From contig CM059432.1 in assembly GCA_030390025.1 (NCBI GenBank), positions 30,134,001-30,198,000 of the forward strand: a DNA stretch of 64,000 nt, given 5' to 3'. Both the position numbers and the translations under genes were made by a program. The notes under the pieces were generated by a model. That model searched no databases, was not told the origin of the DNA, and was given only the letters and a program-made list of their open reading frames with translations. The first letter of the stretch is position 1; every line of letters begins with the position of its first letter. Origin of the DNA: Squalus acanthias (taxonomy: Eukaryota). Of this stretch, positions 8,340 to 62,777 are shown one piece after another.

Positions 8340-8833
8340 TAGCAAAATACTGCGGATGCTGGAAATCTGAAATAACAACAGAAAACGCTGGAAAAACTCA
8401 GCAGGCCAGGCAGCATCCGTGGAGAGAGAAAGAGAGTTAACGTTTCAGGTCGAAGACCTTTCATCAGAACTGTGAAGAGCCAGAAATCAAATAGATTTAA
8501 GGCCAGAGTAAAGCTGGGAAAAGGGGGAGGGGATAAAAGAACAAAGGGGGAGATGAAGAGACATTAAGAGATATGCAAGGCTAGAGGTGGTGTTAATGTG
8601 ACAGATTAAGGCTGAATGAAGTGTGAAATCCACTGGCAGAATGAAGGACAGCTGCCAGCTTCTAGGAGGAAAAAAAAAGGTGGGGGGGGGCAAATGAAAG
8701 GGTGGAAAAAATAAAATATAAATGTGATTGGAGCTGAGGTTATGATCTAAAATTGTTGAACTCGATATTGAGTCCAGAGGGCTGTAGCGTGCCTAAACGA
8801 AAGATGAGGTGCTGTTCCTCGAGCTTACGCTGT
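8340..8833 (-). mobile_element. 3' fragment of a second Penelope-like family in ZC3H3 intron 1
   Basis: Minus strand ~8833-8741 reads QRKLEEQHLIFRLGTLQPSGLNIEFNNFRS* (GIY-YIG C-terminus), followed by a 3' region containing a hammerhead motif. Confidence 0.85.
8435..8471 (-). ncRNA. Minimal hammerhead ribozyme motif (CTGATGA...GAAA)
   Basis: Minus strand AGTT-CTGATGA-A-AGGTC ttc GACCT-GAAA-CGTT-AACT: stem I AGTT/AACT, stem II, palindromic AACGTT, GUU triplet. Confidence 0.82.
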
Positions 8834-13269: not shown

Positions 13270-13680
13270 ACAATACACAGTATCGCGAGAGGGACCTGGG
13301 CCCCGGTTATAACCAAGACTGAGACTGAGCTCGCTCATTCCCCGGCTACAGGACTGGAGGCTGTGCTCGCTGACACTCACCGGTGAGGAGCTGGATCTGC
13401 CTCTCTAACGCTGCCCGCTCCTCCATGGTGCTCGCTGTTCATGACGACACCCACGGCTGCTTCTTACGCTGAGCCCAGCCGACAACGCCAAACGTCATAA
13501 CGTAACCGGTTGCGGTGCCGCCCAGCATGATTGACACCGCCGTTAGCCAGTCCCAAGCGGCGGACTTAACCACCAATCGGATTCAGTATTCGTCATGAAA
13601 GTGGGCGAGGCGATTGTATTTCTCGCAAAGAACTCTGGGAGGTGCAGTTGTTGCAGATAACCAATGACTTAAAGGGGCAG
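13270..13680 (-). promoter_or_regulatory. CpG-rich ZC3H3 promoter/first-exon region
   Basis: Local CpG enrichment around the ATG; ZNF143/SBS-like AACTGCACCTCCCAGAGTTC (minus, ~13630-13649); CCAAT motifs (~13572, ~13661); CRE-like half sites (TGACG/CGTCA); BANP-like TATCGCGAGA at 13281-13290. Confidence 0.7.
13381..13426 (-). CDS. ZC3H3: ZC3H3 coding exon 1 (MEERAALERQIQLLT+G)
   Basis: ATG in strong Kozak context (gcaccATGG); 46 nt ending in G|gtgagt donor; phase 1 joins the exon at 7972 to give MEERAALERQIQLLTALITNHKNVHGD, resembling the vertebrate ZC3H3 N-terminus as I recall it; lies in a CpG-rich segment. Confidence 0.9.
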
Positions 13681-16600: not shown

Positions 16601-17054
16601 ACAATGCATTTATTTAAAAAAATAAAAATTGACCCCATTATAATCCTGGTGTCAAAGTTGTAAAGCATCTACTCTTCTCGTCATGGAACAACTTGACAGC
16701 TATTATGGTGCTAGTAATAGAAAATATTAGAAAACCAGGAATAATAGGAAACAGATTAAAAAGTAGTGTTCAGTCTATTCAAAACAGAAAAGTACTATTG
16801 GCATTTAGATGATGTTTCTAAAGTACCAAACTTTACTTTCTTGGTTTAAGATCATCATCCAAACCCCTTGAGTGTTTCATTGTCTGTAAAAGGCAGTTTG
16901 TTTGCAAGTGGCCGATCCTATGTAAATAGCTACAGATATAGGAACAAAAAGTAATTTAAAGAAATAACAATGATTAAACATAGCAAGAGGTGAAGCCGTA
17001 CCTGTCCCTATTAAAGTACTATAGCACAATCATCTACATACATCTAAACAATAC

Positions 17055-17192
17055 AGACTACTCTAATTCAAAGGCATTTTTGCACTAAAAATTAAAATCA
17101 TGCAATAATCCAAATTAAATATTAATAAAGTGGGAATTTATGCTAAAAAAATCAAATTATTGAATTAAGCAACTTTGAATTAAGAGTAGACT
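17055..17192. mobile_element. Small AT-rich old MITE; partial second copy at ~5800-5908
   Basis: CAGACTACTCTAATTCAAAG ... CTTTGAATTAAGAGTAGACT inverted ends; AAAGTGGGAATTTA..GAATTAAGAGTAGACT shared with 5833-5908. Confidence 0.6.
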
Positions 17193-17942
17193 TTAACAGG
17201 CAAGAACTTAGTCCTATTTCATGAAGCTGACAATAGTGAAGTAGTAAAATAGATATTATCCCATTCCTCCAAAGAAAACCTAAGAAACAGTCATCTAACT
17301 TCTGCACAGCCACAAACCTACATTTAGGTTTGAAATGTGCAGCCAACATTAACCTATATCCTTTTAGTTCTGCTATATATATCTTTTATTTTAAAATAAT
17401 TTTACAACTTTGCTGCATTTTTTCTTTACTGAAATGGAAATCAATTAAAAAAAAAGTAAACAATAAAATGGACGGAAAAACAGCAGTGATTAGAGATAAC
17501 TTCATATCAACTAGAACTCAATCACTTTGATACCTTGCTTCTACAATATTTAAAGTTGATTCTGTTGCTCAGAATTCACCGTAGGGTAGAATTCAAAATG
17601 TTGGCGGCAACTGAGATGCATCTGCGGCTTGCCCAAACATCAGCTGCTAATACATGGAAAAAGAAAATGGTAGCCAACAGTGGCCCGAGATTTTCCTTTC
17701 AAGACAGGGGATGAAGGAACCTCTCATACATCAAGGAAATGCTGTTAGATGCATTCATTTGCGTAAATACTTCCATGTGATCAGATGTGATTGGGAAAAA
17801 GGATAATTTTCCTGAAATTCTAGACATAAGTTTCAGATTTAAGTCATCAAGCTTGGTGCTAAATCCCTTGAGTAGCAGGTTCTTAACAGCTTCCAAAGCA
17901 TATGTGACTATCATTCAGATCAACCAATGGCTCACCTGTTTA

Positions 17943-18372
17943 ATGATGCGGAGATGCCGGTGTTGGACTGGGGTGGACAAAATTGAGAGGTCGCACAACA
18001 CCAGGTTATAGTCCAACAGTTTTATTTGAAATCACAAGCTTTCGGAGTTACAACTCCTTCGTCGGGTGAAGTAAAGAGATACAGAATCGTCAAAGCATAT
18101 ATAGATAGAGAACAATGCATGTGTAACTTACAATTGCAGACAACTAAATTCAATCATCCTGACTAACTTTATCACACCTCGGCAGATAAACAGTCAGGAT
18201 GATTGAATTTAGTTGTCTGCAATTGTAAGTTACACATGCATTGTTCTCTATCTATATATGCTTTGACGATTCTGTATCTCTTTACTTCACCCGACGAAGG
18301 AGTTGTAACTCCGAAAGCTTGTGATTTCAAATAAAACTGTTGGACTATAACCTGGTGTTGTGCGACCTCTCA
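17943..18372 (-). mobile_element. Non-coding palindromic Penelope-like insertion (181-bp perfect inverted arms plus ~40-nt tail)
   Basis: 17984-18164 is the exact reverse complement of 18192-18372; direct repeat CTCACCTGTTTAA at 17931-17943 and 18369-18381; termini homologous to the GIY-YIG-containing element at 29563-30510. Confidence 0.88.
18287..18324 (+). ncRNA. Minimal hammerhead ribozyme motif (variant core CCGACGA); mirror copy on minus strand at 18032-18069
   Basis: TCAC-CCGACGA-A-GGAGT tgta ACTCC-GAAA-GCTT-GTGA: stem I TCAC/GTGA, stem II, palindromic stem III AGCT. Confidence 0.7.
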
Positions 18373-20134
18373 CCTGTTTAAGGCAGTGAGTAGCTGATAC
18401 AATTTGTTGTTTTAACACATTGTGCCATTGAACGGACAGACTCTGGTTCCAGATTTGAGCTGCACCTGAAAGTGGTCAGCAGAGACTAGATTGCAACAGT
18501 CAAGGGTTGGAGTTGGAGGGGGGGGAATTATTTAAATAAACTGCTAGGATAGTCATTACGAGTCACTCTCAAATACCTCCAAACCAGAGAGATCTGGCAG
18601 TATATTTCACCCATTTTCTCAGCAAATTCATGATCTATGGCATATGGACAAGAGTGGGGAAAAAAAGTGTAAAATAGAATCTTAGAAATTCATAAACCAC
18701 GCGTTTAGGATAACAGCACAACTCAGCTGCATTTTCTTACTCTTTCAGCTATTGCTTTGAGAAACTTAAAAAAAAATTATTCTCAGGACGTAGGTGGCAC
18801 TGGCAAAACTGCATTTATTGCCTGTCCCTAGTTACCCTGAGAAGGTGGTGTTGGGCCTTCTTCAACTGCTCCAGTCCTTGTGGTGATGGTGCTACACAAT
18901 AGCATTAGGTAGGGAATTCCAGGATGTTGACCCAGCAACAATGAAGGAGAGGCGATATATCTCCAGTTAGAATGGTGTAAGACAGAAGATGATGGTGTTC
19001 CCATGACATTGCTAGTTTTGTCTGTCTTAGTGGTAGTCGTCTCAGGGGAAAAGGTACTGTAAAAGTAATCTTGATAAGTTGCTGGAATGTTTATATAGAC
19101 TGCCAGCTATGCCTTAAACTGTAATAATGGTTCAGTAGGTAACTACACTGTGGTATTGGCACTTAGCCATATAAACCATGAAAAAAAGGTTTACTCTTTG
19201 ACCATTCAAAAATTGCTAATTTCATGGCAGTGCTCGGGTGCTACAATAGGGCTCAGTGTCCCTGAATGAAGGAGAGGAAGAAAAGGTCAATAAGGGCTCC
19301 CACTCTTGGAAATGTACAAATGTGGCCATCATATCAGGACCAAATTGTGCGCAGCTGTGAGATGTCGTTCGCCCAATCAAATAACCTGCTGACACTTTCT
19401 AGGCTCGTTCAAAGAATGGCCAGTAGGGCAAGAGACCAGGGGGTTGAATACGGAGCATTCAGAGAGCTTTTAACAAAGGTTACCGCTCAGGTGAACTTTA
19501 ATCTATAAATCAAAAGCTAATCTCATTCATTTCCACTCCCCTTTCTTTAATTATTTTGTTTACACAATATAATCGAGTCTTCAAAGGGGGAACAGAATAA
19601 AATATTGCAAAGTGTCAGACTATAATTTCTGAAAACATGGAATCCTTTAGTATAACATATGTTGCCCAAGGTCATTTTATGAATTGTCAGGAGGAAATAT
19701 GCAAAATTTCCACTGGATCTCGCTTTAACGTCTCCGATAGTGCAGCACTCCCTCAGCAGTGAACTGGATTTTCAGCCAAGATTATGTGCTTATATCCTGA
19801 AGTGGGGCTTGAACCCACGACTTTCTGACTCAGAGGTGAGAGTGCTACCACTGAGCCAAGTTTGACAAATATGAAAAATACTCAGCAGTACAATTAGAGA
19901 GTTAGTCTCAAACTTCGGTAGAATTTTTTTGGCTGTATAACACTAGGGTAAAGCAGTGGTGGTAACAGGTCTGTTACTGGTGGTGAGAAAGATTTAAGGT
20001 GAAGAATTGGAATGTGAATCAAGAAGCAGGAGTATGATTTTTCCTAAAGCTTTTAGTATAAATAAACCCAATAGCATCACTATTGAAACCTTATTAAACA
20101 AGCTCTTTAATACTGGACAGGAATCATAAACAAT

Positions 20135-20876
20135 GGCCCGTAATTTAGGGTTAGGGTTCGGATGCCTCCTATCGGGAAAAAATCTATGCCCTTACCTGAG
20201 GGCTCCTGAGGTCCAGACTCTTCCGATCCTGGGCCTCTCCTGGTGCGCGTGCAAAGGCCCAGGTATCCCAGGGGTGCAGGCAGTTTGCAAGCGTCCCTGG
20301 GATCACGTGGGCCAGGTGAGCCAATGGGAGAAGGGAATCCCCCTTCATACTTCTGACAGATAGACCTGTCAAAAGTATGAATGGGGATCATTGAAAAAAG
20401 ACACTACATTAAATAATTTTTTTTTAAAAATCACGTTTTTAAAATGAGTTAAAATTACATTAAATTAAATATTTTAAACAAAAATTTAATTTTTTGAAAA
20501 AATAATTAAAGTTTTTTACGGGGCTAAAAATAAACTTACCTTTTTTAAAAGTATTTTTACATTATAAATGAGTGAAAAAAATTTTTTTTTTACTTTTTTA
20601 AACTCTTATGCTGGTAAAAGCAGGCCTTACGACTGCTTTTACCAGGCATAAGATTTTTAAGGGATTTCAGCGGGCGAAGGTTCTGCAGAAAGCGGAACAC
20701 TCCACCCGCAGAGGCCCTTCTCCAGGGCAGGCGTGCGATCTGTCAAGAGGATTCTTGACAGATCAGAAGTGCCGGTTTTCAGCGCATGCGCTTCGCATGC
20801 CTGAAACCGGCACTTGAGGTCCCTACGGGTGTGTACACAGCTCGTACACACCCGTAGATATCAGAAAATACGGGCC
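20135..20876. mobile_element. Harbinger-like non-autonomous element, hairpin-rich
   Basis: TIR GGCCCGTA(a/t)TTT; 3-bp AAT duplication; several internal palindromes. Confidence 0.75.
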
Positions 20877-27248: not shown

Positions 27249-27682
27249 CTAAAATGGGAGGAGGGGGAAATGAGGGGAAAAAGGGAAAACATATTGTTTA
27301 TAAATGCAGTTAGGATGATCTACGATTACTGTTTCAGTAGGTAACATCAAATGAGATGAATTTGCTCTCATCCGTCCTCCTTCCATCTGTTCAACGCATG
27401 ACAAATGTTAAAATGAATAGTACTCCCAAATAATACTATTAATAAAATGGAACCTCCTTTATCCACCTCAATGGAAGGGATCCACTGCTCGATAATGGAG
27501 ACGAGCAGATAATCCAGAATCTGTTTTTATATGTATGGTATAGGAATATCCCAGGCATGGGAGTGAAGACCAGTACAATGCAAAGCACAAAAGAAATGGA
27601 GATGAAATGCAATCCACAAAAGAAGCCGTATAATGAGACAATGCCTCACATTAGGCCTTGTCCTGCCAAAATATGGTAGGTA

Positions 27683-28046
27683 CAGGAAACTCTTTATTAA
27701 CCGGCACCCAAATATCCGGAAATCTCTCTTAACCGGCAAAATTCTTGAGTAGGTAACCGGGGTTTTCCTTCATCTCTCGTTTAAAATTAACTTTAAAAAA
27801 AACCCCGAGGTGTTTGCCTTGTATCGGAGCGTGTAGATTGGGAGGGGAATGTGCAGCCCGGGTAGGCAGTGGACACGACAGATGGTCAGCTGGCGGTCCC
27901 CGGGGAGACGGAGCTCCGAATGCAGGCGCATGTCAATGTGTACGGGGCTCTCGTACGTTGGGAGATATAACTCTCCATTATCCGGACTTTTTGATTAACT
28001 GGCACCACGCCGGTCCCATCGGTGCCGGTTAATAAAGAGTTTCCTG
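27683..28046. mobile_element. Tc1/pogo (Tigger-like) MITE
   Basis: Perfect 26-bp TIR CAGGAAACTCTTTATTAACCGGCACC; TA on both sides. Confidence 0.92.
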
Positions 28047-28690
28047 TAGTCAGAAGAGCAGTCAACAGAGGTTCCACTGAATAAAAAAAGGCTTTCTTTC
28101 TTTCAGTCGGCTGTCTCCCCAAGTAACTGCAGCGTGTGCAGTTTTGTGTTGGCTGCTGAGTTATTTGCTACAGTTCCATTCAATGCACAATTACATTGGA
28201 TGATATTAGAGGGCAGCCATCAGTGAATTATAAGACAGTACTCCAGTTATGGTCATTATGCCTCTGAGCTACTTCTTCCCAAGCTCCAAATATATCATCC
28301 GACAGGCTCTTTCCTCCCAGCATTCTTCCAGTGTTGAAATCAAGACACATCTCACTGCTACTCCATCTTTTTCATTCCTGAAAACTGTGGAACTCTCTGC
28401 ATTCCTTCGATAATCTCAGGCATTTAAAGCCCAAGCTTGGCATCAGCTGACAGTTGCCTCTTCACTCCTACAACTTTTCAACTTAGTGGTTACCCACCGT
28501 TAATAGCCTTGGGCCTTCAGCTTGTTTTACAATGTAAGAAAATCAGAGGGATTAAGCTGGTGATTTAACAAATAAAGGACAAGGATAAATAATTTCTATT
28601 CAAAACAACTCACATGTATTGTGCATACCCATCCTTATATCAGCTTCCTAAGCCATACTTCTCTTAACGTTACCCTTCTCTGAATGCCTG

Positions 28691-29160: not shown

Positions 29161-29562
29161 CTTTTCCGACTGCACCAGTCACAGTTCATGGAATGGAATA
29201 TACCAAGGTTAACAGATTGGAATACATGGCAGATTTTTCGCAAAACTTGAAAAAGAATACGTCTAACTACATTAACAATGTCATAAGCCGCAAGAAAAAT
29301 ATTAAGTCAGTTGTCTGATGCCTTATTTGGAGATTTGCCTTATAACTCACAGGTAGCTATCCACGGCAGTGAGTTTTCAAGATTTTTCAAAAGAAGCTGA
29401 ATGAATAACTGGTTCGGAAAAGAATTGATGGTTATAAAAACAGGTATAAACTGAGATGATCAAATGCTCCATTGGACATAATAATTCATGTACTGTGGAA
29501 TGAGAAATGTTGTCTGAGGAGGATAGCAGGCCTAGATTGAACAAATCAATGCCATTAAAAAA

Positions 29563-30510
29563 GAGAAGGCGCACAACACCAGGTTATAGTCTAACAGATT
29601 TATTTAATTTTACAAGCTTTCGGAGCAGTTCGCTCCTTCGTCAGGTAAGTTTAGCAGTGAGAGAATCTCCCAGAATTCACAATTTAAACACAGACAAAAT
29701 ATATTCAAATCTTTCCCACATCAAAGAGCATAGCCAAGACAATGAGATGTGTCCCAGGGGGTCCAACGTGTCAAACCACCTGCTGGCTGCATATCCTGTC
29801 AATCTGTGTAGGTTCTTGGGTTAGCCTTTTTAAAAAAAAACACCTGGGAAGACGACCTGATACGTTGCAGTAAAGGATGCTCCAGAGCATGGTACATCGG
29901 CGAGACCATGCAGACACTGAGACAACGTATGAACGGACACCGCGCAACAATCGCCAGGCAGGAGGGTTGCCTCCCAGTCGGGGAACACTTCAGCAGCCAG
30001 GGGCATTCAGCCTCGGATATGCGGGTAAGCGTTCTCCAAGGCGGCCTTCGAAATACACGACAGCACAAAATCATAGAGCAGAAACTGATAGCCAAGTTCC
30101 GCACTCATGAGGAGGGCCTCAATCGCGATATCGGGTTCATGTCACGATACAGAACGTGACTTGACATCATGGCCAGTCTTCCCAGGTGTTTTTTTTTTTA
30201 AAAAGGCTAACACAAGAACCTACACAGATTGATAGGATATGCAGCCAGCAGGTGGTTTGACACGTTGGACCCCCTGGGACACATCTCATTGTCTTGGCTA
30301 TGCTCTTTGATGTGGGAAAGATTTGAATATATTTTGTCTGTGTTTAAATTGTGAATTCTGGGAGATTCTCTCACTGCTAAACTTACCTGACGAAGGAGCG
30401 AACTGCTCCGAAAGCTTGTAAAATTAAATAAATCTGTTGGACTATAACCTGGTGTTGTGCGACTTCTCATTTTTGTCCACCCCAGTCCAACGCCGGCATC
30501 TCCACATCAT
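29563..30510 (+). mobile_element. 5'-truncated Penelope-like retroelement with inverted pLTRs around a GIY-YIG endonuclease fragment
   Basis: Arms 29563-29853 and 30176-30468 are inverted (4 substitutions and a 2-nt homopolymer indel); centre encodes LIRCSKGCSRAWYIGETMQTLRQRMNGHR...EQKLIAKFRTHEEGLNRD; TSD CATTAAAAAAGAG at 29553-29565 and 30508-30520. Confidence 0.92.
30383..30421 (+). ncRNA. Minimal hammerhead ribozyme motif (CTGACGA...GAAA); mirror copy on minus strand at 29610-29648
   Basis: TTAC-CTGACGA-A-GGAGC gaact GCTCC-GAAA-GCTT-GTAA; canonical core, predicted CUU cleavage triplet. Confidence 0.82.
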
Positions 30511-30655
30511 TAAAAAAGAGGGATAATATTCTAGAAGTTTCCTCAATATCTTGAGGAGATCAGGGACTACTTATTGGAATATTTTCGTAGGCAATTTAGT
30601 GGATGGAACAGAGACCATGAGAGGATAGCGAAATGGGCTGCATTATGTACATATA

Positions 30656-30984
30656 CAGGAAACTCTCGTTTAAACGGCACCTAAATATCCGGAATTCTCT
30701 ATTAACCGGCAAAATTCAGGAGTTGGTTCAGGTAAGTTTTACTGTATATTAGTGGCCATGTAACCGGGGTTCCTGCACCTGTGGCCGTGTAACAGGGGCT
30801 CCTGGATCTGTGGCCGTGTAACCGGGACTCCTGCACAAGTGGCCGTGTAACCGGGGCTCCTGCACAAGTGGCCGTGTAACTGGGGCTCTTGTACCTTGGT
30901 AGGTATACATCTCCATTATCCGTAATTTTTAATAAAGCAGCACCATCCCGGTCCCGTAGGTGCCGGATACCAAAGAGTTTCATG
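30656..30984. mobile_element. Related Tigger-like MITE containing a minisatellite
   Basis: Diverged CAGGAAACTCT..CGGCACC TIRs, TA flanks; same subterminal sequence as 27683. Confidence 0.82.
30752..30896. repeat. 29-bp minisatellite, 5 copies
   Basis: Consensus GTGGCCGTGTAACCGGGGCTCCTGCAC(aa/ct). Confidence 0.92.
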
Positions 30985-31033
30985 TATGTATGTATGTATA
31001 TATACACACACATACACACAGACAATATATATA

Positions 31034-52019: not shown

Positions 52020-55000
52020 CACTAGAGGCCTTTATTAACCTATGGATTTGTTAGAGGTACCTCAACGCCGGCACACTTGAAGCCTTCCGAGACCGGTGGG
52101 CACCGCAGGGACTGGAGTGCATCGTCTCCCCGGGAAATGTTATTTTAATATAATGATAAGTTTCATTTGAAGTTTTGTTAATTTAAAGTAGTTTTATGTT
52201 GACTCAAAAAGAGTAGAGGTGCCTCAAGTTGTAGGAACCTGATATGGCAACATTGTAATTTACTATACAGGTACATTGGCATTCATACAGATATTTCTCA
52301 CATTCTTTCCTTCTTCCCCCTTCCTCACGCAGCACTCGGCAGCGCACTGTCCACCTTGTCTTTAAATGAATTGGATCAATTGAATTAGACCTGCGAGTTT
52401 CCCAGCCAATTAAATGGGGTGGGTCTGATGATGTCATCGATGACTCGCCTTGAGCTCAGATATTTAAAGGGGCCTTCTACACATTACACTTGAAGGTTGC
52501 TGGAGGGGGATCACAGCTCTTTGGCAGAGGTGTGGTTGTTCAGAAACGAAAGATTTTCCATCGGAAGCTTGAGGGAAGCATGCAGTCCCAGCAGCGGAAG
52601 GCAGCACCCAGATTCTCGGACTCCTCCCTGGAAGACCTGCTCCAGGGAGTTCGAGCACGTAGGGACATCCTGTTCCTTGGGGATGAGTACAAGAGGCCTT
52701 CCAGTGAGATAAAGCAGGGATGTAGTCAGGCGATCCTGGATCCAGTGCCGCAAAAGATTTAATGATCTCATGAGGTCAGGAAAGGTGAGTGCAATGCCAC
52801 ATTCAACTGCATCCTGATGTGTGTATCACCCCAACCCCATCACTCTGCCTTCCCAAGCTTACCCCTGCACGTCAATCCTTACACCAACCTACCTTGCAAG
52901 GTGCACCCATCCCTCACTCTCTATGCACCTACTCACATCCCTATCTGACTAACCACCACTGACACTCACCCTCATCCTAATGCAATCATAGGAAGTAATG
53001 CCACAGAAGGAGGCCATTTGGCAATGCCACGCCACTCCCTCATGGGCACCCTCTACAGATGTAGCCCATCCATTCCTTACACTCATTTCATCAAACTCAC
53101 TCAAAGTTCTTTCCCTTGCAGAAGAGAGCTCAGAACATCCGGGAGAGACAACAATTTTTGCCCTCCAATTTTTAACCAACTTGACTCCAGCAGAGGAGGA
53201 GGCGCTGCAAATCACTAGAGTTGCAGAGCTGCTGGCGGTGGGAGACGGAGCCCTCCCAGCAACCTGGTGACAGAATTAAATATCATACAGCCACATGGCA
53301 TACAACAGTCACTCATGGTGACTTGATGTCAGAAGCCAGTGAAATGTCATCATGTGCATAATGATAATATCGCTCATTCTTCTCATTACATTTCTAATTC
53401 ATGTCTTTACTCTCCCACAGGTCCATCAAGTGCCCGCACCCCCACTGTCCAGCTGGAAGAGGAAGACGACGACTCAGAGGTAGCTCCACTCTCTGAAGGT
53501 GCACTGTCACCAGACCCATGTGCACCCAGCACCGATATGCACACCTCGGTGGGTCCAGCAAGATATAGAGTAGCGTTGTGATCTGTGAGACACCAGGTGA
53601 CAAGTGAGCAAGAGCAGATGGTGGAGACAGGGACAGCACTGGCGAGTCCTCGCCAGAGGGTGCAAGACACTCCCAGCTCTGCTCAGTTGCGTGCAGATGC
53701 TGAACCTCAGGGGCCGTCGAGAAAGAGGGTGATCTTGGAGGAGCAGCAACAAAAGCACGAGGCTCTGGCAGCTTTTGCAGCTGCGATGTGTGCGACTGTA
53801 CAGAGAATGGAGGAGTTCATCTCCAACATGAGCACCACCATCTCGCAGGCGATGGCGACGGTGTGCTGTTCCATGGAAAGGATGGCCACCTACATGGAGC
53901 AGCAAATGCGCCAGTCGAACAACAACAGGCTTGCTGTGAACAACAGATTGCAGACTCTCATTGACCTCACCTCGAGGAGGGATACCAACTGTAAGCTGCT
54001 ATACATGTGGAGATCGAAATTGCCAACGAATTGTGAGAGGATAACAGACGGACTCAAAATGGAGGAGGTCAGCATGTGGTCCTTTGTTTGTAAGGATTCA
54101 AAATGGAGGTGGTCAGTATGTAGTCCTTTGTTTGGGAGACCACATGGACAGGAAAGAGAAACACAGGATGAAGAGGAAGTCCCGCCCTCACACACATCAC
54201 AGGGACATGAGCGTATCATGCAGAAGGAACACCAATCAGGGAAGGTCAGGAGTGAAGAGGAAGGCAGCTGGAAGAGACACGAGGAGAACATACAGGAGGG
54301 CATTATAAAGAGAAACAGAAGCGTAAAAATTCGAAGGACAAAGGAAGCTGTTTTGAATGGTCAGTCGATTCGTGAAGCCTACCATCAATTCGGACTGATC
54401 AATACAGCTGCCAGGGAATCTGGCACACATGCATGATTATCTTTTTATGGTTGCAGATGAGCTGCACACTGAGGGAGTGGAAGCCCTTGCGGTTGACAAA
54501 GACCCTGGGTGATGATGGGGTGCCTTCGTGGCCACATGTGTGCAGTCGATGACGTCCTGCACCCGTGGGAAGACAACCAGAGTAGCAAAGCCGAGCTCAG
54601 TAACACTGGCTTTGCCAGTGTCAAAGTTGATATAATTGGCTGACTTGTCAAACAGGGCATCGGTGACCTGTGTGATGCATCTGGTGGCTGACTGCGAGAT
54701 GCCACAAATGTCTGCTGCAGATCCCTGGATGGAGCCTGAGGCAAAGAAGTTGAGGGTGGTGGTGACTTTGACAGCCACTAGTAAGGCATGTCCACCATGT
54801 CTCGTCCTGTTCGCCCATCACCCCTGTGCTCGCTGACCTACATTGGCTCCCAGTTAAGCAGCACCTCGATTTCAAAATTCTCATCCTTGTTTTCAAATCC
54901 CTCCATGGCCTCATCCCTCCGTATCTCTGTAATCTCCTTCACCCACCACCCGCCCAAGATATCTCTACTCCTCTAATTCTGCCCTCTTGAGCATCCCTGA

Positions 55001-60265: not shown

Positions 60266-62777
60266 TAGGGTTGCGAAGGGGTGGAAAGTTTCCGGTAAAT
60301 TTCTGGAAATTTTCCACGGGAAGTTTAGCTTGGGAATTTTGCCCAAAAAAGCACATGCTAGCATAATATTGTTTTTTTTTGTATTTCTTTTTTTCCCCCC
60401 CCCCACAGGTCCTCTCTTAAAATTACTAACAGAGATGGAATCTTAATTATTAAGGAATTTCTTAATCAATATATGTTTATCTTCTTACTTGGCTTGTTTT
60501 AATAATTACAAGTTTTGTGTGTGACTGTGAACAAATGTGTCCTGATTGGTTGGATGAGTGGATGAGCGATTAGCTCCCTCTATTGGTGATGTAGCGTCGT
60601 GCGTGCACAGGTCATGCTTCCATCACATGGAGCATCAGGAAAAATGTACTCACCCTGTTGCAATCGTGCTGATCGACCGCAGTTCGACACAGAGACGAAT
60701 GCCCTTTATTTCTCTGCATAGAACAATGCCACGTTTACCGTCGGATGTGTGGAAGCATTTTACCCCAGGCATTAAAGATGGAAAGACTGTGTACATGTGC
60801 AAACACTGTACAAAGCCATATGTAAAGAATGCCACAAAGATGCAGCAGCATTTATCCAAATGCAACAACTTCACTCAAAGCTCACAGCAGTCAGCCCAGA
60901 GTCCCTCTGCTTCCATTCAAGAAGATGATGGTTCACCTTCAGCATCAGGCTCCTTATCAGCAACTCCTGGCCCACTTGGAAGGTTCTTTGATACAATGGA
61001 TAACCATAGCCAGAAGAATGCAGATGAGTGCCTTGCTCGAGCTGTATATGCGACAGGCTCAACCCTCATGCTCTTAGCCAATGTGTACTGGAAGAGATTT
61101 TTCAATGTTATTCGCCCTGCATACTGTCCTCCCACCAGACATGCTTTGTCTACTTATTTGCTGGAGGCTGAGTATAACAGAGTCCAAGGAAAGCTCAAAG
61201 AAACGATAGAGATGGCAGACATTGTTGCAGTTATCTCAGATGGGTGGTCAAATGTACGAGGGGAGGGCATCATAAACTACATCGTCTCCACTCCTCTCCC
61301 AGTGTTCTTCAAGAGCACAGACACGAAGGACAACAGACACACAGGCACATACATTGCTGATGAGCTGAAAGCGGTCATCAACGATCTTGGATCACAAAAG
61401 ATCTTTGCAGTAGTTACTGACAATGCTGCGAATATGAAGGCTGCTTGGGCTCAAGTGGAGGAGGCCTACCCTCATATTACGTCTATTGGGTGCGCAGCTC
61501 ATGGGCTCAACCTGCTCCTCAAGGACATCATGGGCTTGAGAACCATGGAAACACTGTACAAGAGAGCCAAGCAAGTTGTTAAGTATGTCAGGGGAAAACA
61601 GGTAGTTGCAGCAACCTACAACTCCAAGCAAACAACAAAGAACAAGAACACCACACTGAAGCTGCCCAGCAACACTAGATGGGGTGGTGTTGTCATAATG
61701 TACAACAGCCTTCTGGAGGGTAAGGAGTCGCTGCAAGAAATGGCAATATCCCAGTCTGGGGATATGGAAACCACCATCAAGAAAATACTGCTGGATGATG
61801 TGTTTTGGGAGAGAGTGGTTAGCAGCCTTAAACTACTCTCTCCAGTACCATCTGCAATTGTTCAGATTGAAGGAGATGACGCTGTCTTGTCAGATGTTCT
61901 CAGGCTTTTTGCTGATTTAAAAGAACAAATCAGCATTACCCTACCCACATCCCTGCTGCTCAAAGCAGAGGAGAAGGCAATTGTTCAATTCATACAGACG
62001 CGTCAAGAATTTTGTGTCAAGCCGATTCATGCTGCAGCATACATGCTGGACCCAAAGCATGTTGGGAGACCAATACGTTCTGGAGAACAGATCAACAGCG
62101 CTTAGTGTGATTTCTACCCTCTCACGCCACCTCAATCTGGACGTGGGCAAAGTTCTGGGAAGTCTGGCAAAGTTCTCTACCAAGCAAGGTCTTTGGAATG
62201 GGGACGGGATATGGGAATCATGCAAGCATATCAGTGCACATACCTGGTGGAAGGGATTTTGTGCATCTGAGGCCCTGTCACCCATTGCATCGGTGATACT
62301 CCAAATCCCACCTTCATCAGCGGCCTCTGAACAAAACTGGTCACTTTTTGGGAATACGCATACAAAGGTGCGCAACAAGCTGACTAACAAGAGAGTGGAG
62401 AAACTGGTGGCTATCCAGGCGAACCTACAACTTATTGAGCCAGATACAGAAGTGTCCACCACACAGCTAGACAGTGACACAGAGGAGGAAATGGACACGT
62501 CAGAGCCAGAGAATCAGGAGGAGCAATGAGGAGTAGAAGACTCATGAGTAGAAGATTCAAAGGGACAAAATAAGGACAAATTACAGGCTAAATAAGCTGT
62601 TTTTATTTGTATGGAACAGTATGTCTATTTTGATGACAAAGATAATACAGTATAAGGGTCAGAGACAAAAACCATCAGTGTGCAAAAAAAACTCAAAATT
62701 CCCATAGATTCCCATAAATTCCCGAAAATTCCCATGGAAAGTTTCCTCTTAAAAATTCCCGGAATTTTGCAACCCTA
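60266..62777 (+). mobile_element. hAT-superfamily DNA transposon, full length (2512 bp)
   Basis: TIRs TAGGGTTGC(g/a)AA; perfect 8-bp TSD CTTGAGGC (60258-60265 and 62778-62785); subterminal GGAAAnTTCC-like repeats; internal transposase. Confidence 0.95.
60726..62529 (+). pseudogene. hAT transposase (BED zinc finger, DDE core, hATC dimerisation domain) with one frameshift near 62100
   Basis: VWKHF..CKHC..MQQHLSKC (BED), SDGWSN, VTDNAANM, CAAHGLNLL and TRW in ORF 60558-62105; WWKGF..LQIPPSSAASEQNWS..KVRNKL in overlapping ORF 61981-62529. Confidence 0.92.

Follow-up and report, generated by a model that had tools for sequence, protein, structure and literature searches.

The window, i.e. the whole 64,000-nt stretch of Squalus acanthias DNA analysed here, contains a 181-bp inverted repeat without a single mismatch. 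What kind of sequence is this, and by which route did two identical copies come to lie head to head at one site? A sequence-only reading had proposed a Penelope-type insertion, and we tested the parts of that proposal against the window, against known proteins and RNAs, and against contigs from public sequencing runs.

Layout and identity of the insert

The arms, 17984 to 18164 and 18192 to 18372, are exact reverse complements (181 bp, 100% identity, 27 nt between them), as originally described. No other perfect inverted repeat with closely spaced arms in the window is as long, the runner-up having 28 bp, and the folding z-score of the palindrome is -39.5, with 0 of 100 shuffles folding equally well. 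On the evidence of sequence homology set out below, the insert (element 1) is almost certainly derived from an endonuclease-containing Penelope-like element (PLE). Its features, and those of a related second element (element 2), are:

17931 to 17943, plus strand: target-site duplication, left copy, CTCACCTGTTTAA, 100% identical to 18369 to 18381
17944 to 17983, minus strand: PLE 'tail' of 40 nt, the family's outer 3' terminus, present on the left side only and matching the tail of element 2
17984 to 18164, minus strand: left arm, a PLE 3' end, part of the 248-nt tailed copy 17944 to 18191
18032 to 18069, minus strand: minimal type I hammerhead motif of the left arm, U4C core variant
18165 to 18191, minus strand: 'loop' of 27 nt, extra 5' sequence of the tailed copy
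18192 to 18372, plus strand: right arm, a tail-less inverted copy of the same PLE end, 27 nt shorter
18287 to 18324, plus strand: minimal type I hammerhead motif of the right arm, predicted cut after 18320
18369 to 18381, plus strand: target-site duplication, right copy, CTCACCTGTTTAA, its first 4 nt common with the arm end
29553 to 30520, no strand assigned: element 2, of a related PLE family, with the same layout of 13-bp duplication, inverted arms and one-sided tail

The insert proper (17944 to 18372) thus consists of two head-to-head, 5'-truncated PLE 3' ends, a tailed copy of 248 nt and a tail-less copy of 181 nt; the whole insert is 438 bp long. The tailed copy ends at the outer terminus of the family and the tail-less copy ~40 nt inside it. 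Since the tailed copy extends 27 nt further in the 5' direction, it forms the loop, and here an imperfect 6-bp stem (TTTATC/GATAAA), which has a bulge on folding, lies at the inversion junction. The one-sided tail of ~40 nt that had been noticed earlier is real, 17944 to 17983 having no mirror on the right, and so is the duplication of the flanks, CTCACCTGTTTAA being present at both 17931 to 17943 and 18369 to 18381. The duplication can be read as 13 bp or, because its right copy begins inside the right arm and overlaps the final 4 nt of that arm, as 9 bp with a 4-nt microhomology.

A tblastn search of 17944 to 18372 with six PLE proteins detected no reverse transcriptase (RT) and GIY-YIG endonuclease ORF, nor any other match, in agreement with the earlier statement that the insert has no coding remnant. 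It is therefore classed as a truncated copy and not as an autonomous PLE: a dead, promoter-less, non-coding stump whose source was probably a high-copy, Neptune-type PLE.

Three other classes of element were considered and rejected. A microRNA precursor would be expected to belong to an Rfam family; at gathering score Rfam gave no match in the window, its hammerhead models gave none at E values up to 10, and the 12 sub-threshold matches all follow the long hairpin. A MITE or foldback DNA transposon does not fit a 40-nt tail that lies outside the left arm only, or arms that are retroelement 3' ends. A non-LTR retrozyme consists of tandem direct repeats, and here there are inverted copies only. 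A 26-nt pattern from the arm had no matches in metagenome, viral and prokaryotic genome collections.

Element 1 looks intergenic, no coding exon having been found over it. On one side, 4505 bp away, an ATG opens MEERAALERQIQLLT at 13426 on the minus strand. The sequence-only reading had placed the palindrome ~4.5 kb from the ZC3H3 start; the distance to a minus-strand ATG is correct, whilst the gene name is provisional. We presume the gene starting at 13426 to be ZC3H3 from its N-terminus, and the Atlas matches for this name (0.81-0.82) are leads only. Exons for BRO1 and PDZ domains, which we take to belong to a rhophilin-like gene, are found on the opposite side (26-27 kb and 46.6 kb). The window contains other repeats as well: two adjacent small hairpins (20265 to 20303 and 20337 to 20388, with 18-bp and 23-bp arms) have no Rfam match; a MITE-like element at 27681 to 28048 is bounded by perfect 28-bp terminal inverted repeats, and a diverged second copy of it (30654 to 30986) lies beside element 2; ORFs at 53500 to 54800 presumably represent a decayed Harbinger-type transposase and its partner gene; and a hAT-like transposon (60266 to 62777) has 12-bp inverted ends (11/12) with subterminal repeats, a 515-aa ORF with DUF659 and a BED finger, and an ORF in another frame (61921 to 62529).

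A second element, PLE relatives and the hammerhead motifs

The absence of homology between the arms and the termini of GIY-YIG retroelements would have spoken against a Penelope-type origin; such homology was found. Searching the window with the tailed half of element 1 recovered element 2, with 87% identity across 131 columns of the 3' part. The arms of element 2 are ~297 bp long and 97.7% identical, and its tailed copy is again the longer one (~656 versus 291 nt), leaving a loop of >300 nt. The extra part of this tailed copy holds, at 29857 to 30150, a C-terminal endonuclease remnant of 98 residues that is 86% identical to the C-terminus of P0001, a 643-aa shark RT-endonuclease protein (one protein search gave 29 matches among 43 candidates) with DKG and YIDD motifs and a CX4CxxC linker. 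Pfam matched nothing in the endonuclease remnant of element 2 itself. In an independent metagenome contig, L001, the same hammerhead, with the motif downstream of it, comes after a Pfam GIY-YIG match (1 confirmed contig, at least 604 candidates), and the endonuclease of L001 is 65% identical. Element 2 thus ties the terminus to an endonuclease remnant and L001 repeats the arrangement of hammerhead and motif, from which we infer that the arms are PLE 3' ends. The Penelope-type origin, the inverted terminal copies and the extreme truncation proposed earlier all stand.

Both P0001 and L001 have a CX2-5CxxC linker before the endonuclease, a feature of Neptune and Nematis elements (PMC8557442), and both are relatives rather than a proven parent. 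The homology between elements 1 and 2 covers the 3' ~130 nt: the upstream ~120 nt of the element 1 arm had no match in element 2, and no parent was found for them; likewise, ~200 nt of element 2, from the ORF end to the hammerhead, had none in element 1. The two elements share other details. Their tail-less ends lie in the same register, TTAAA adjoins the tail in both, and both have 3-4 nt of microhomology at the tail-less end. In L001 (975 to 1095), a 20-nt motif after the hammerhead is almost identical; it is a candidate cis-element worth testing, e.g. as a protein-binding or start-site signal.

Each arm of element 1 has a hammerhead motif with a 4-bp helix I, the core CCGACGA, an extra A, a 5-bp helix II, GAAA and a self-complementary AAGCUU. 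The claim of a minimal hammerhead in each arm stands as regards architecture; the core is not CUGANGA (U4C), a change that the sequence-only reading had not pointed out. Using a descriptor of the minimal type, relaxed at core positions 3, 4 and 8, we found five matches in the window (both arms of element 1, both arms of element 2 and one other) and none in 30 composition-matched random sequences. When elements 1 and 2 and L001 were aligned, 23/23 cells were paired, with double changes in two pairs, compared with 18-54% pairing in slid controls; covariation in these three sequences is not significant by itself, as 77 of 500 shuffles do equally well. At core position 4 both arms of element 1 have C, whereas U is present in L001 and in element 2, whose hammerheads are canonical.

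The fifth descriptor match belongs to another family. It lies at 8434 to 8471 on the minus strand, just upstream of a large ZC3H3-like exon, has the core CUGAUGA and a self-complementary AACGUU, and is apparently a lone PLE end.

A functional hammerhead in the transcript of either strand, which the sequence-only reading had implied, is not borne out: the core is U4C, the type requires a dimer, and on read-through the motif is paired with the mirror arm. Minimal PLE hammerheads are described as dimer-requiring (Cervera and de la Pena 2014, PMC4209133), and U4C is reported to reduce activity considerably in vitro, yet to be tolerated in a viroid (PMC3088659). Because the motifs face outward, read-through RNA from either strand would make the antisense arm first and thereby sequester the motif; in folding calculations the mean probability that the motif pairs with the mirror arm is 0.9995. 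In an unconstrained co-fold of two hammerhead copies, intermolecular helix II pairing was preferred over the active dimer, an outcome that carries no information on activity. The hammerhead of element 1 is a probable passenger, dependent on a dimer, altered at U4 and, if read through, buried in the hairpin.

Contigs from independent runs and the age of the insertion

To compare the locus with independent data, we used assembled contigs, the form taken by all 24 public runs that contain the region wholly or partly (13 with at least half of its words); none of the 24 is recorded as RNA, and in X14 to X24 the share was 0.26 or less. Contigs of four runs (X1, X5, X7 and X11) were compared with 16900 to 18191, which spans the left flank, tail, left arm and loop. 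The figures below rest on the pieces and loose ends listed, and contigs drop rare variants.

In X1 the flank has a depth of 16, compared with 4.8 million for the tail and outer arm and 160,000 for the loop, so that the family exceeds the unique flank by 10^4 to 3x10^5 times, a rough measure and not a copy number. High family depth continues through 18176 to 18191. As all the parts compared, including the loop, are far deeper than the flank, they are repeat-family sequence. Loose ends cluster at 17943/17944 in all four runs (at least 110+24 contigs in X1, at least 94 in X11, at least 20 in X5 and at least 27 in X7) and, among the ends listed, at 17984 in one of the four (X11, at least 29 contigs); these positions therefore mark the two termini of the family, which are the boundaries of the tail. 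Family contigs also traverse the loop in the register of the left arm, to 18189 in X1 and to 18188 in X11 (with four gap letters), so the loop is the extra 5' reach of the tailed copy.

This bears on the suggestion that element 1 belongs to a short palindromic, non-autonomous family copied as a unit, whether MITE-like or a retrozyme-like PLE derivative. In the loop, plain family sequence continues the register of the tailed copy and is abundant as such, and no fold-back joint was listed; the left-half comparison of the four runs yielded no opposite-strand joint at the loop among the joints listed. A contig with a depth of 78 follows the sequence as far as 18189 and then has 28 more letters that are not reported as a strand switch. 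The centre has left a trace only in two X1 contigs, whose eight loose letters at 18164 match the junction of right arm and loop; as both end after the same junction letters, more than one locus could share this junction, which is what a replicating palindrome would produce. Against it, element 2 differs in its centre and in arm length, a transcript of the unit would form a stable duplex (-354 kcal/mol) that hides the 3' end on one strand, and a literature search on shark PLE palindromes, PLE twin priming and miniature palindromic PLEs, with subscription journals mostly outside its coverage, found no paper on such a family, nor any on the shark PLE family of element 1. We regard this explanation as improbable, and the replicating family of the sequence-only reading is not upheld.

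A second use of the contigs is to ask whether the palindrome is a product of assembly or of library fold-back. In three of the four runs (X1, X5 and X7), one contig each crosses from the unique flank and covers 23-25 nt of the tail; these contigs come from three samples, three studies and two organism labels. The 23-25 letters on the tail side are fewer than the bridging threshold of 31 letters, and we treat this support for the left junction as suggestive. The centre and the right junction are without independent confirmation, as an artefact would allow. Nevertheless, an artefact would not stop at the second terminus of the family, duplicate a 13-bp target and re-enter unique sequence, and element 2 repeats the layout with arms that have diverged. 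Given the outer ends at family termini, the target duplication, the left-junction contigs and the layout of element 2, we reject an artefact as scarcely credible.

The letters of element 1 at two positions are in the minority among family contigs. At 17989 its letter is found in 25-29% (4/4 runs), and at 18151 in 0-23%, with no X7 contig having it. At core position 18064 no alternative letter was listed in any of the four runs, an absent row being no proof of identity; the neighbouring loop-II positions 18050 and 18052 vary among family contigs, and loose ends from copies with a different helix II read U4. U4C may therefore be a mark of the subfamily of element 1. The flank itself is variable at 17447, with A in the window and X7 and T in X1, X11 and X5, and both haplotypes enter the tail. 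Two of the runs compared, taken to be RNA by guesswork only, contain contigs of 3.8-3.9 kb that end at 17968, which are not evidence of transcription; a dsRNA substrate for ADAR or Dicer, as envisaged in the sequence-only reading, and an effect on ZC3H3 are speculative.

The description of the insertion as 'very recent' goes further than the data. Identical arms (0 differences in 181 bp) cap the divergence only at 1.64%, i.e. ~12 million generations at 7x10^-10 per generation, a rate that is taken from the epaulette shark (PMC10587355) and may not apply here, and the left junction is seen, suggestively, in three of the four runs. No empty allele was seen among the contigs compared; X11, of which ~55% was read, is uncovered at ~17783 to 17911 and has no bearing on this. 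The arms of element 1 are identical and its five CpGs per arm are intact, whilst the arms of element 2 have diverged, so element 1 is the younger of the two. To call it young for this genome is reasonable.

Identity of the arms could also have been acquired late, if an older, imperfect inverted insertion had been homogenised by arm-to-arm conversion or hairpin repair. The X7 flank equals that of the window, yet no X7 contig has the 18151 letter of element 1, and the entry of both 17447 haplotypes into the tail also favours an older event. The five intact CpGs per arm and the intact 13-bp duplication point the other way, as do the arms of element 2, which at 97.7% indicate that homogenisation is not general here. 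We consider late homogenisation very improbable.

Formation of the inverted copy and comparison with known systems

Our preferred explanation, held at little better than even confidence, combines PLE identity with priming from two ends, in a single retrotransposition event truncated on both sides. In brief, the GIY-YIG endonuclease would make staggered cuts at an AT-rich site (TTAAA by the tail), leaving two 3' ends. From one of these, reverse transcription would begin at the terminal start site; from the other, aided by the 4-nt homology (CTCA), it would begin at an internal one. Both cDNAs would be copied from RNA of one source locus and would halt early, at 248 and ~181 nt; they would then anneal through the imperfect TTTATC/GATAAA stem as microhomology, followed by fill-in.

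Reading inward from each flank, both strands run into antisense element, one at the outer and the other at the internal terminus, as two target-primed cDNAs predict. The arms share the minority letters at 17989 and 18151, which fits a single source template. Both elements of the window have this layout, and their tail-less ends share one register. Moreover, an Anolis PLE protein is reported to cut and extend both strands in vitro at AT-rich sites, with two start sites that bound the tail (PMC11167929).

Other observations are less favourable to two primers. The tailed copy is the longer one in both elements and a small stem lies at the centre, which are direct predictions of a snap-back route. 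The same Anolis study saw no need of homology between primer and RNA (PMC11167929), yet 3-4 nt of it are present at the tail-less end in both elements. The contigs, compared over the left half, also give no direct confirmation of the centre and right junction of element 1, and none in X7 has its letter at 18151.

In the snap-back route a single tail-primed cDNA would stall at 248 nt, fold on the imperfect stem and copy itself back to the tail boundary, and the product would be joined to the other end of the target via microhomology. The bulged 6-bp stem at the centre, a tailed copy that is the longer one in 2/2 elements, the identity of the arms with their common minority letters, and the 3-4 nt of homology at the tail-less joins are all as expected, and palindromes at such junctions have been read as self-priming (PMC3846280). 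However, an extra step is required to stop both elements in one register, which is also a family terminus genome-wide; the stem is weak (-1.5 kcal/mol as DNA); a perfect version predicts GTT where the sequence has a single C; and the loop of element 2 is >300 nt. We view snap-back as possible, though doubtful.

By itself this single locus matters little, being one stump of a very abundant family in a published layout. Element 1 is useful as a clean example: its outer junctions lie at two termini tied in vitro to RT start sites, and shark genomes would offer a possible census on how inverted PLE copies form, a process called undefined in PMC8557442. A wider reading, which we think unlikely, is that a PLE subfamily with a crippled U4C core and a fold-back spot ~250 nt from its 3' end has been amplified to thousands of copies and repeatedly leaves near-perfect 180-bp hairpins, possibly with the same centre. 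This reading derives from two hints, the invariance of 18064 as listed and the two contigs that stop at the same junction letters. If true, such a subfamily would be evidence from nature that PLEs can spread in vivo without ribozyme cleavage, and its many insertions would provide a natural collection for separating two-primer from snap-back integration. A U4C core throughout the subfamily would support the in vitro result that insertion is independent of the ribozyme.

Element 1 is an ordinary truncated PLE insertion in published layout. An inverted, 5'-truncated copy with a one-sided tail of 30-40 nt is described as standard for PLEs (PMC8557442, PMC3846280, PMC8969392). Endonuclease-positive PLE insertions (Craig et al. 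2021; Arkhipova et al. 2013) share with element 1 the head-to-head inverted copy, the one-sided tail, a target duplication of ~9-13 bp and a small palindrome at the inverted junction; in Pen2a of A. vaga the duplication is 9 bp, the tail 31 bp and the inverted pLTR 181 bp long. Duplications of variable length at AT-rich sites are expected of this class; here they are 13 bp (or 9+4) in element 1 and 13 bp in element 2. The difference is one of content: the copies in element 1 are only 181-248 nt, with no ORF or direct pLTR, whereas the published examples mostly frame an ORF.

The hammerheads described in PMC4209133 include opposite-strand pairs 100-700 bp apart; those of element 1 differ by the C at core position 4, and the accessible text of that paper does not name sharks. 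Non-LTR retrozymes (bioRxiv 10.64898/2026.07.22.740005) resemble element 1 in being short, non-coding and PLE-related with a type I hammerhead, but are tandem direct repeats, whereas element 1 is an inverted pair with a tail and a target duplication. The closest experimental system is PAc, a Poseidon PLE of Anolis carolinensis (Frangieh et al. 2024, PMC11167929), which has the same two tail-bounding termini and an AT-rich target, and for which ribozyme cleavage is reported to be unnecessary for insertion. PAc, like Poseidon elements, is without the CX2-5CxxC linker, whereas the relatives of element 1 have the Neptune/Nematis linker. PAc requires no primer homology, and the accessible text of its description leaves inverted copies of the kind seen in elements 1 and 2 unexplained.
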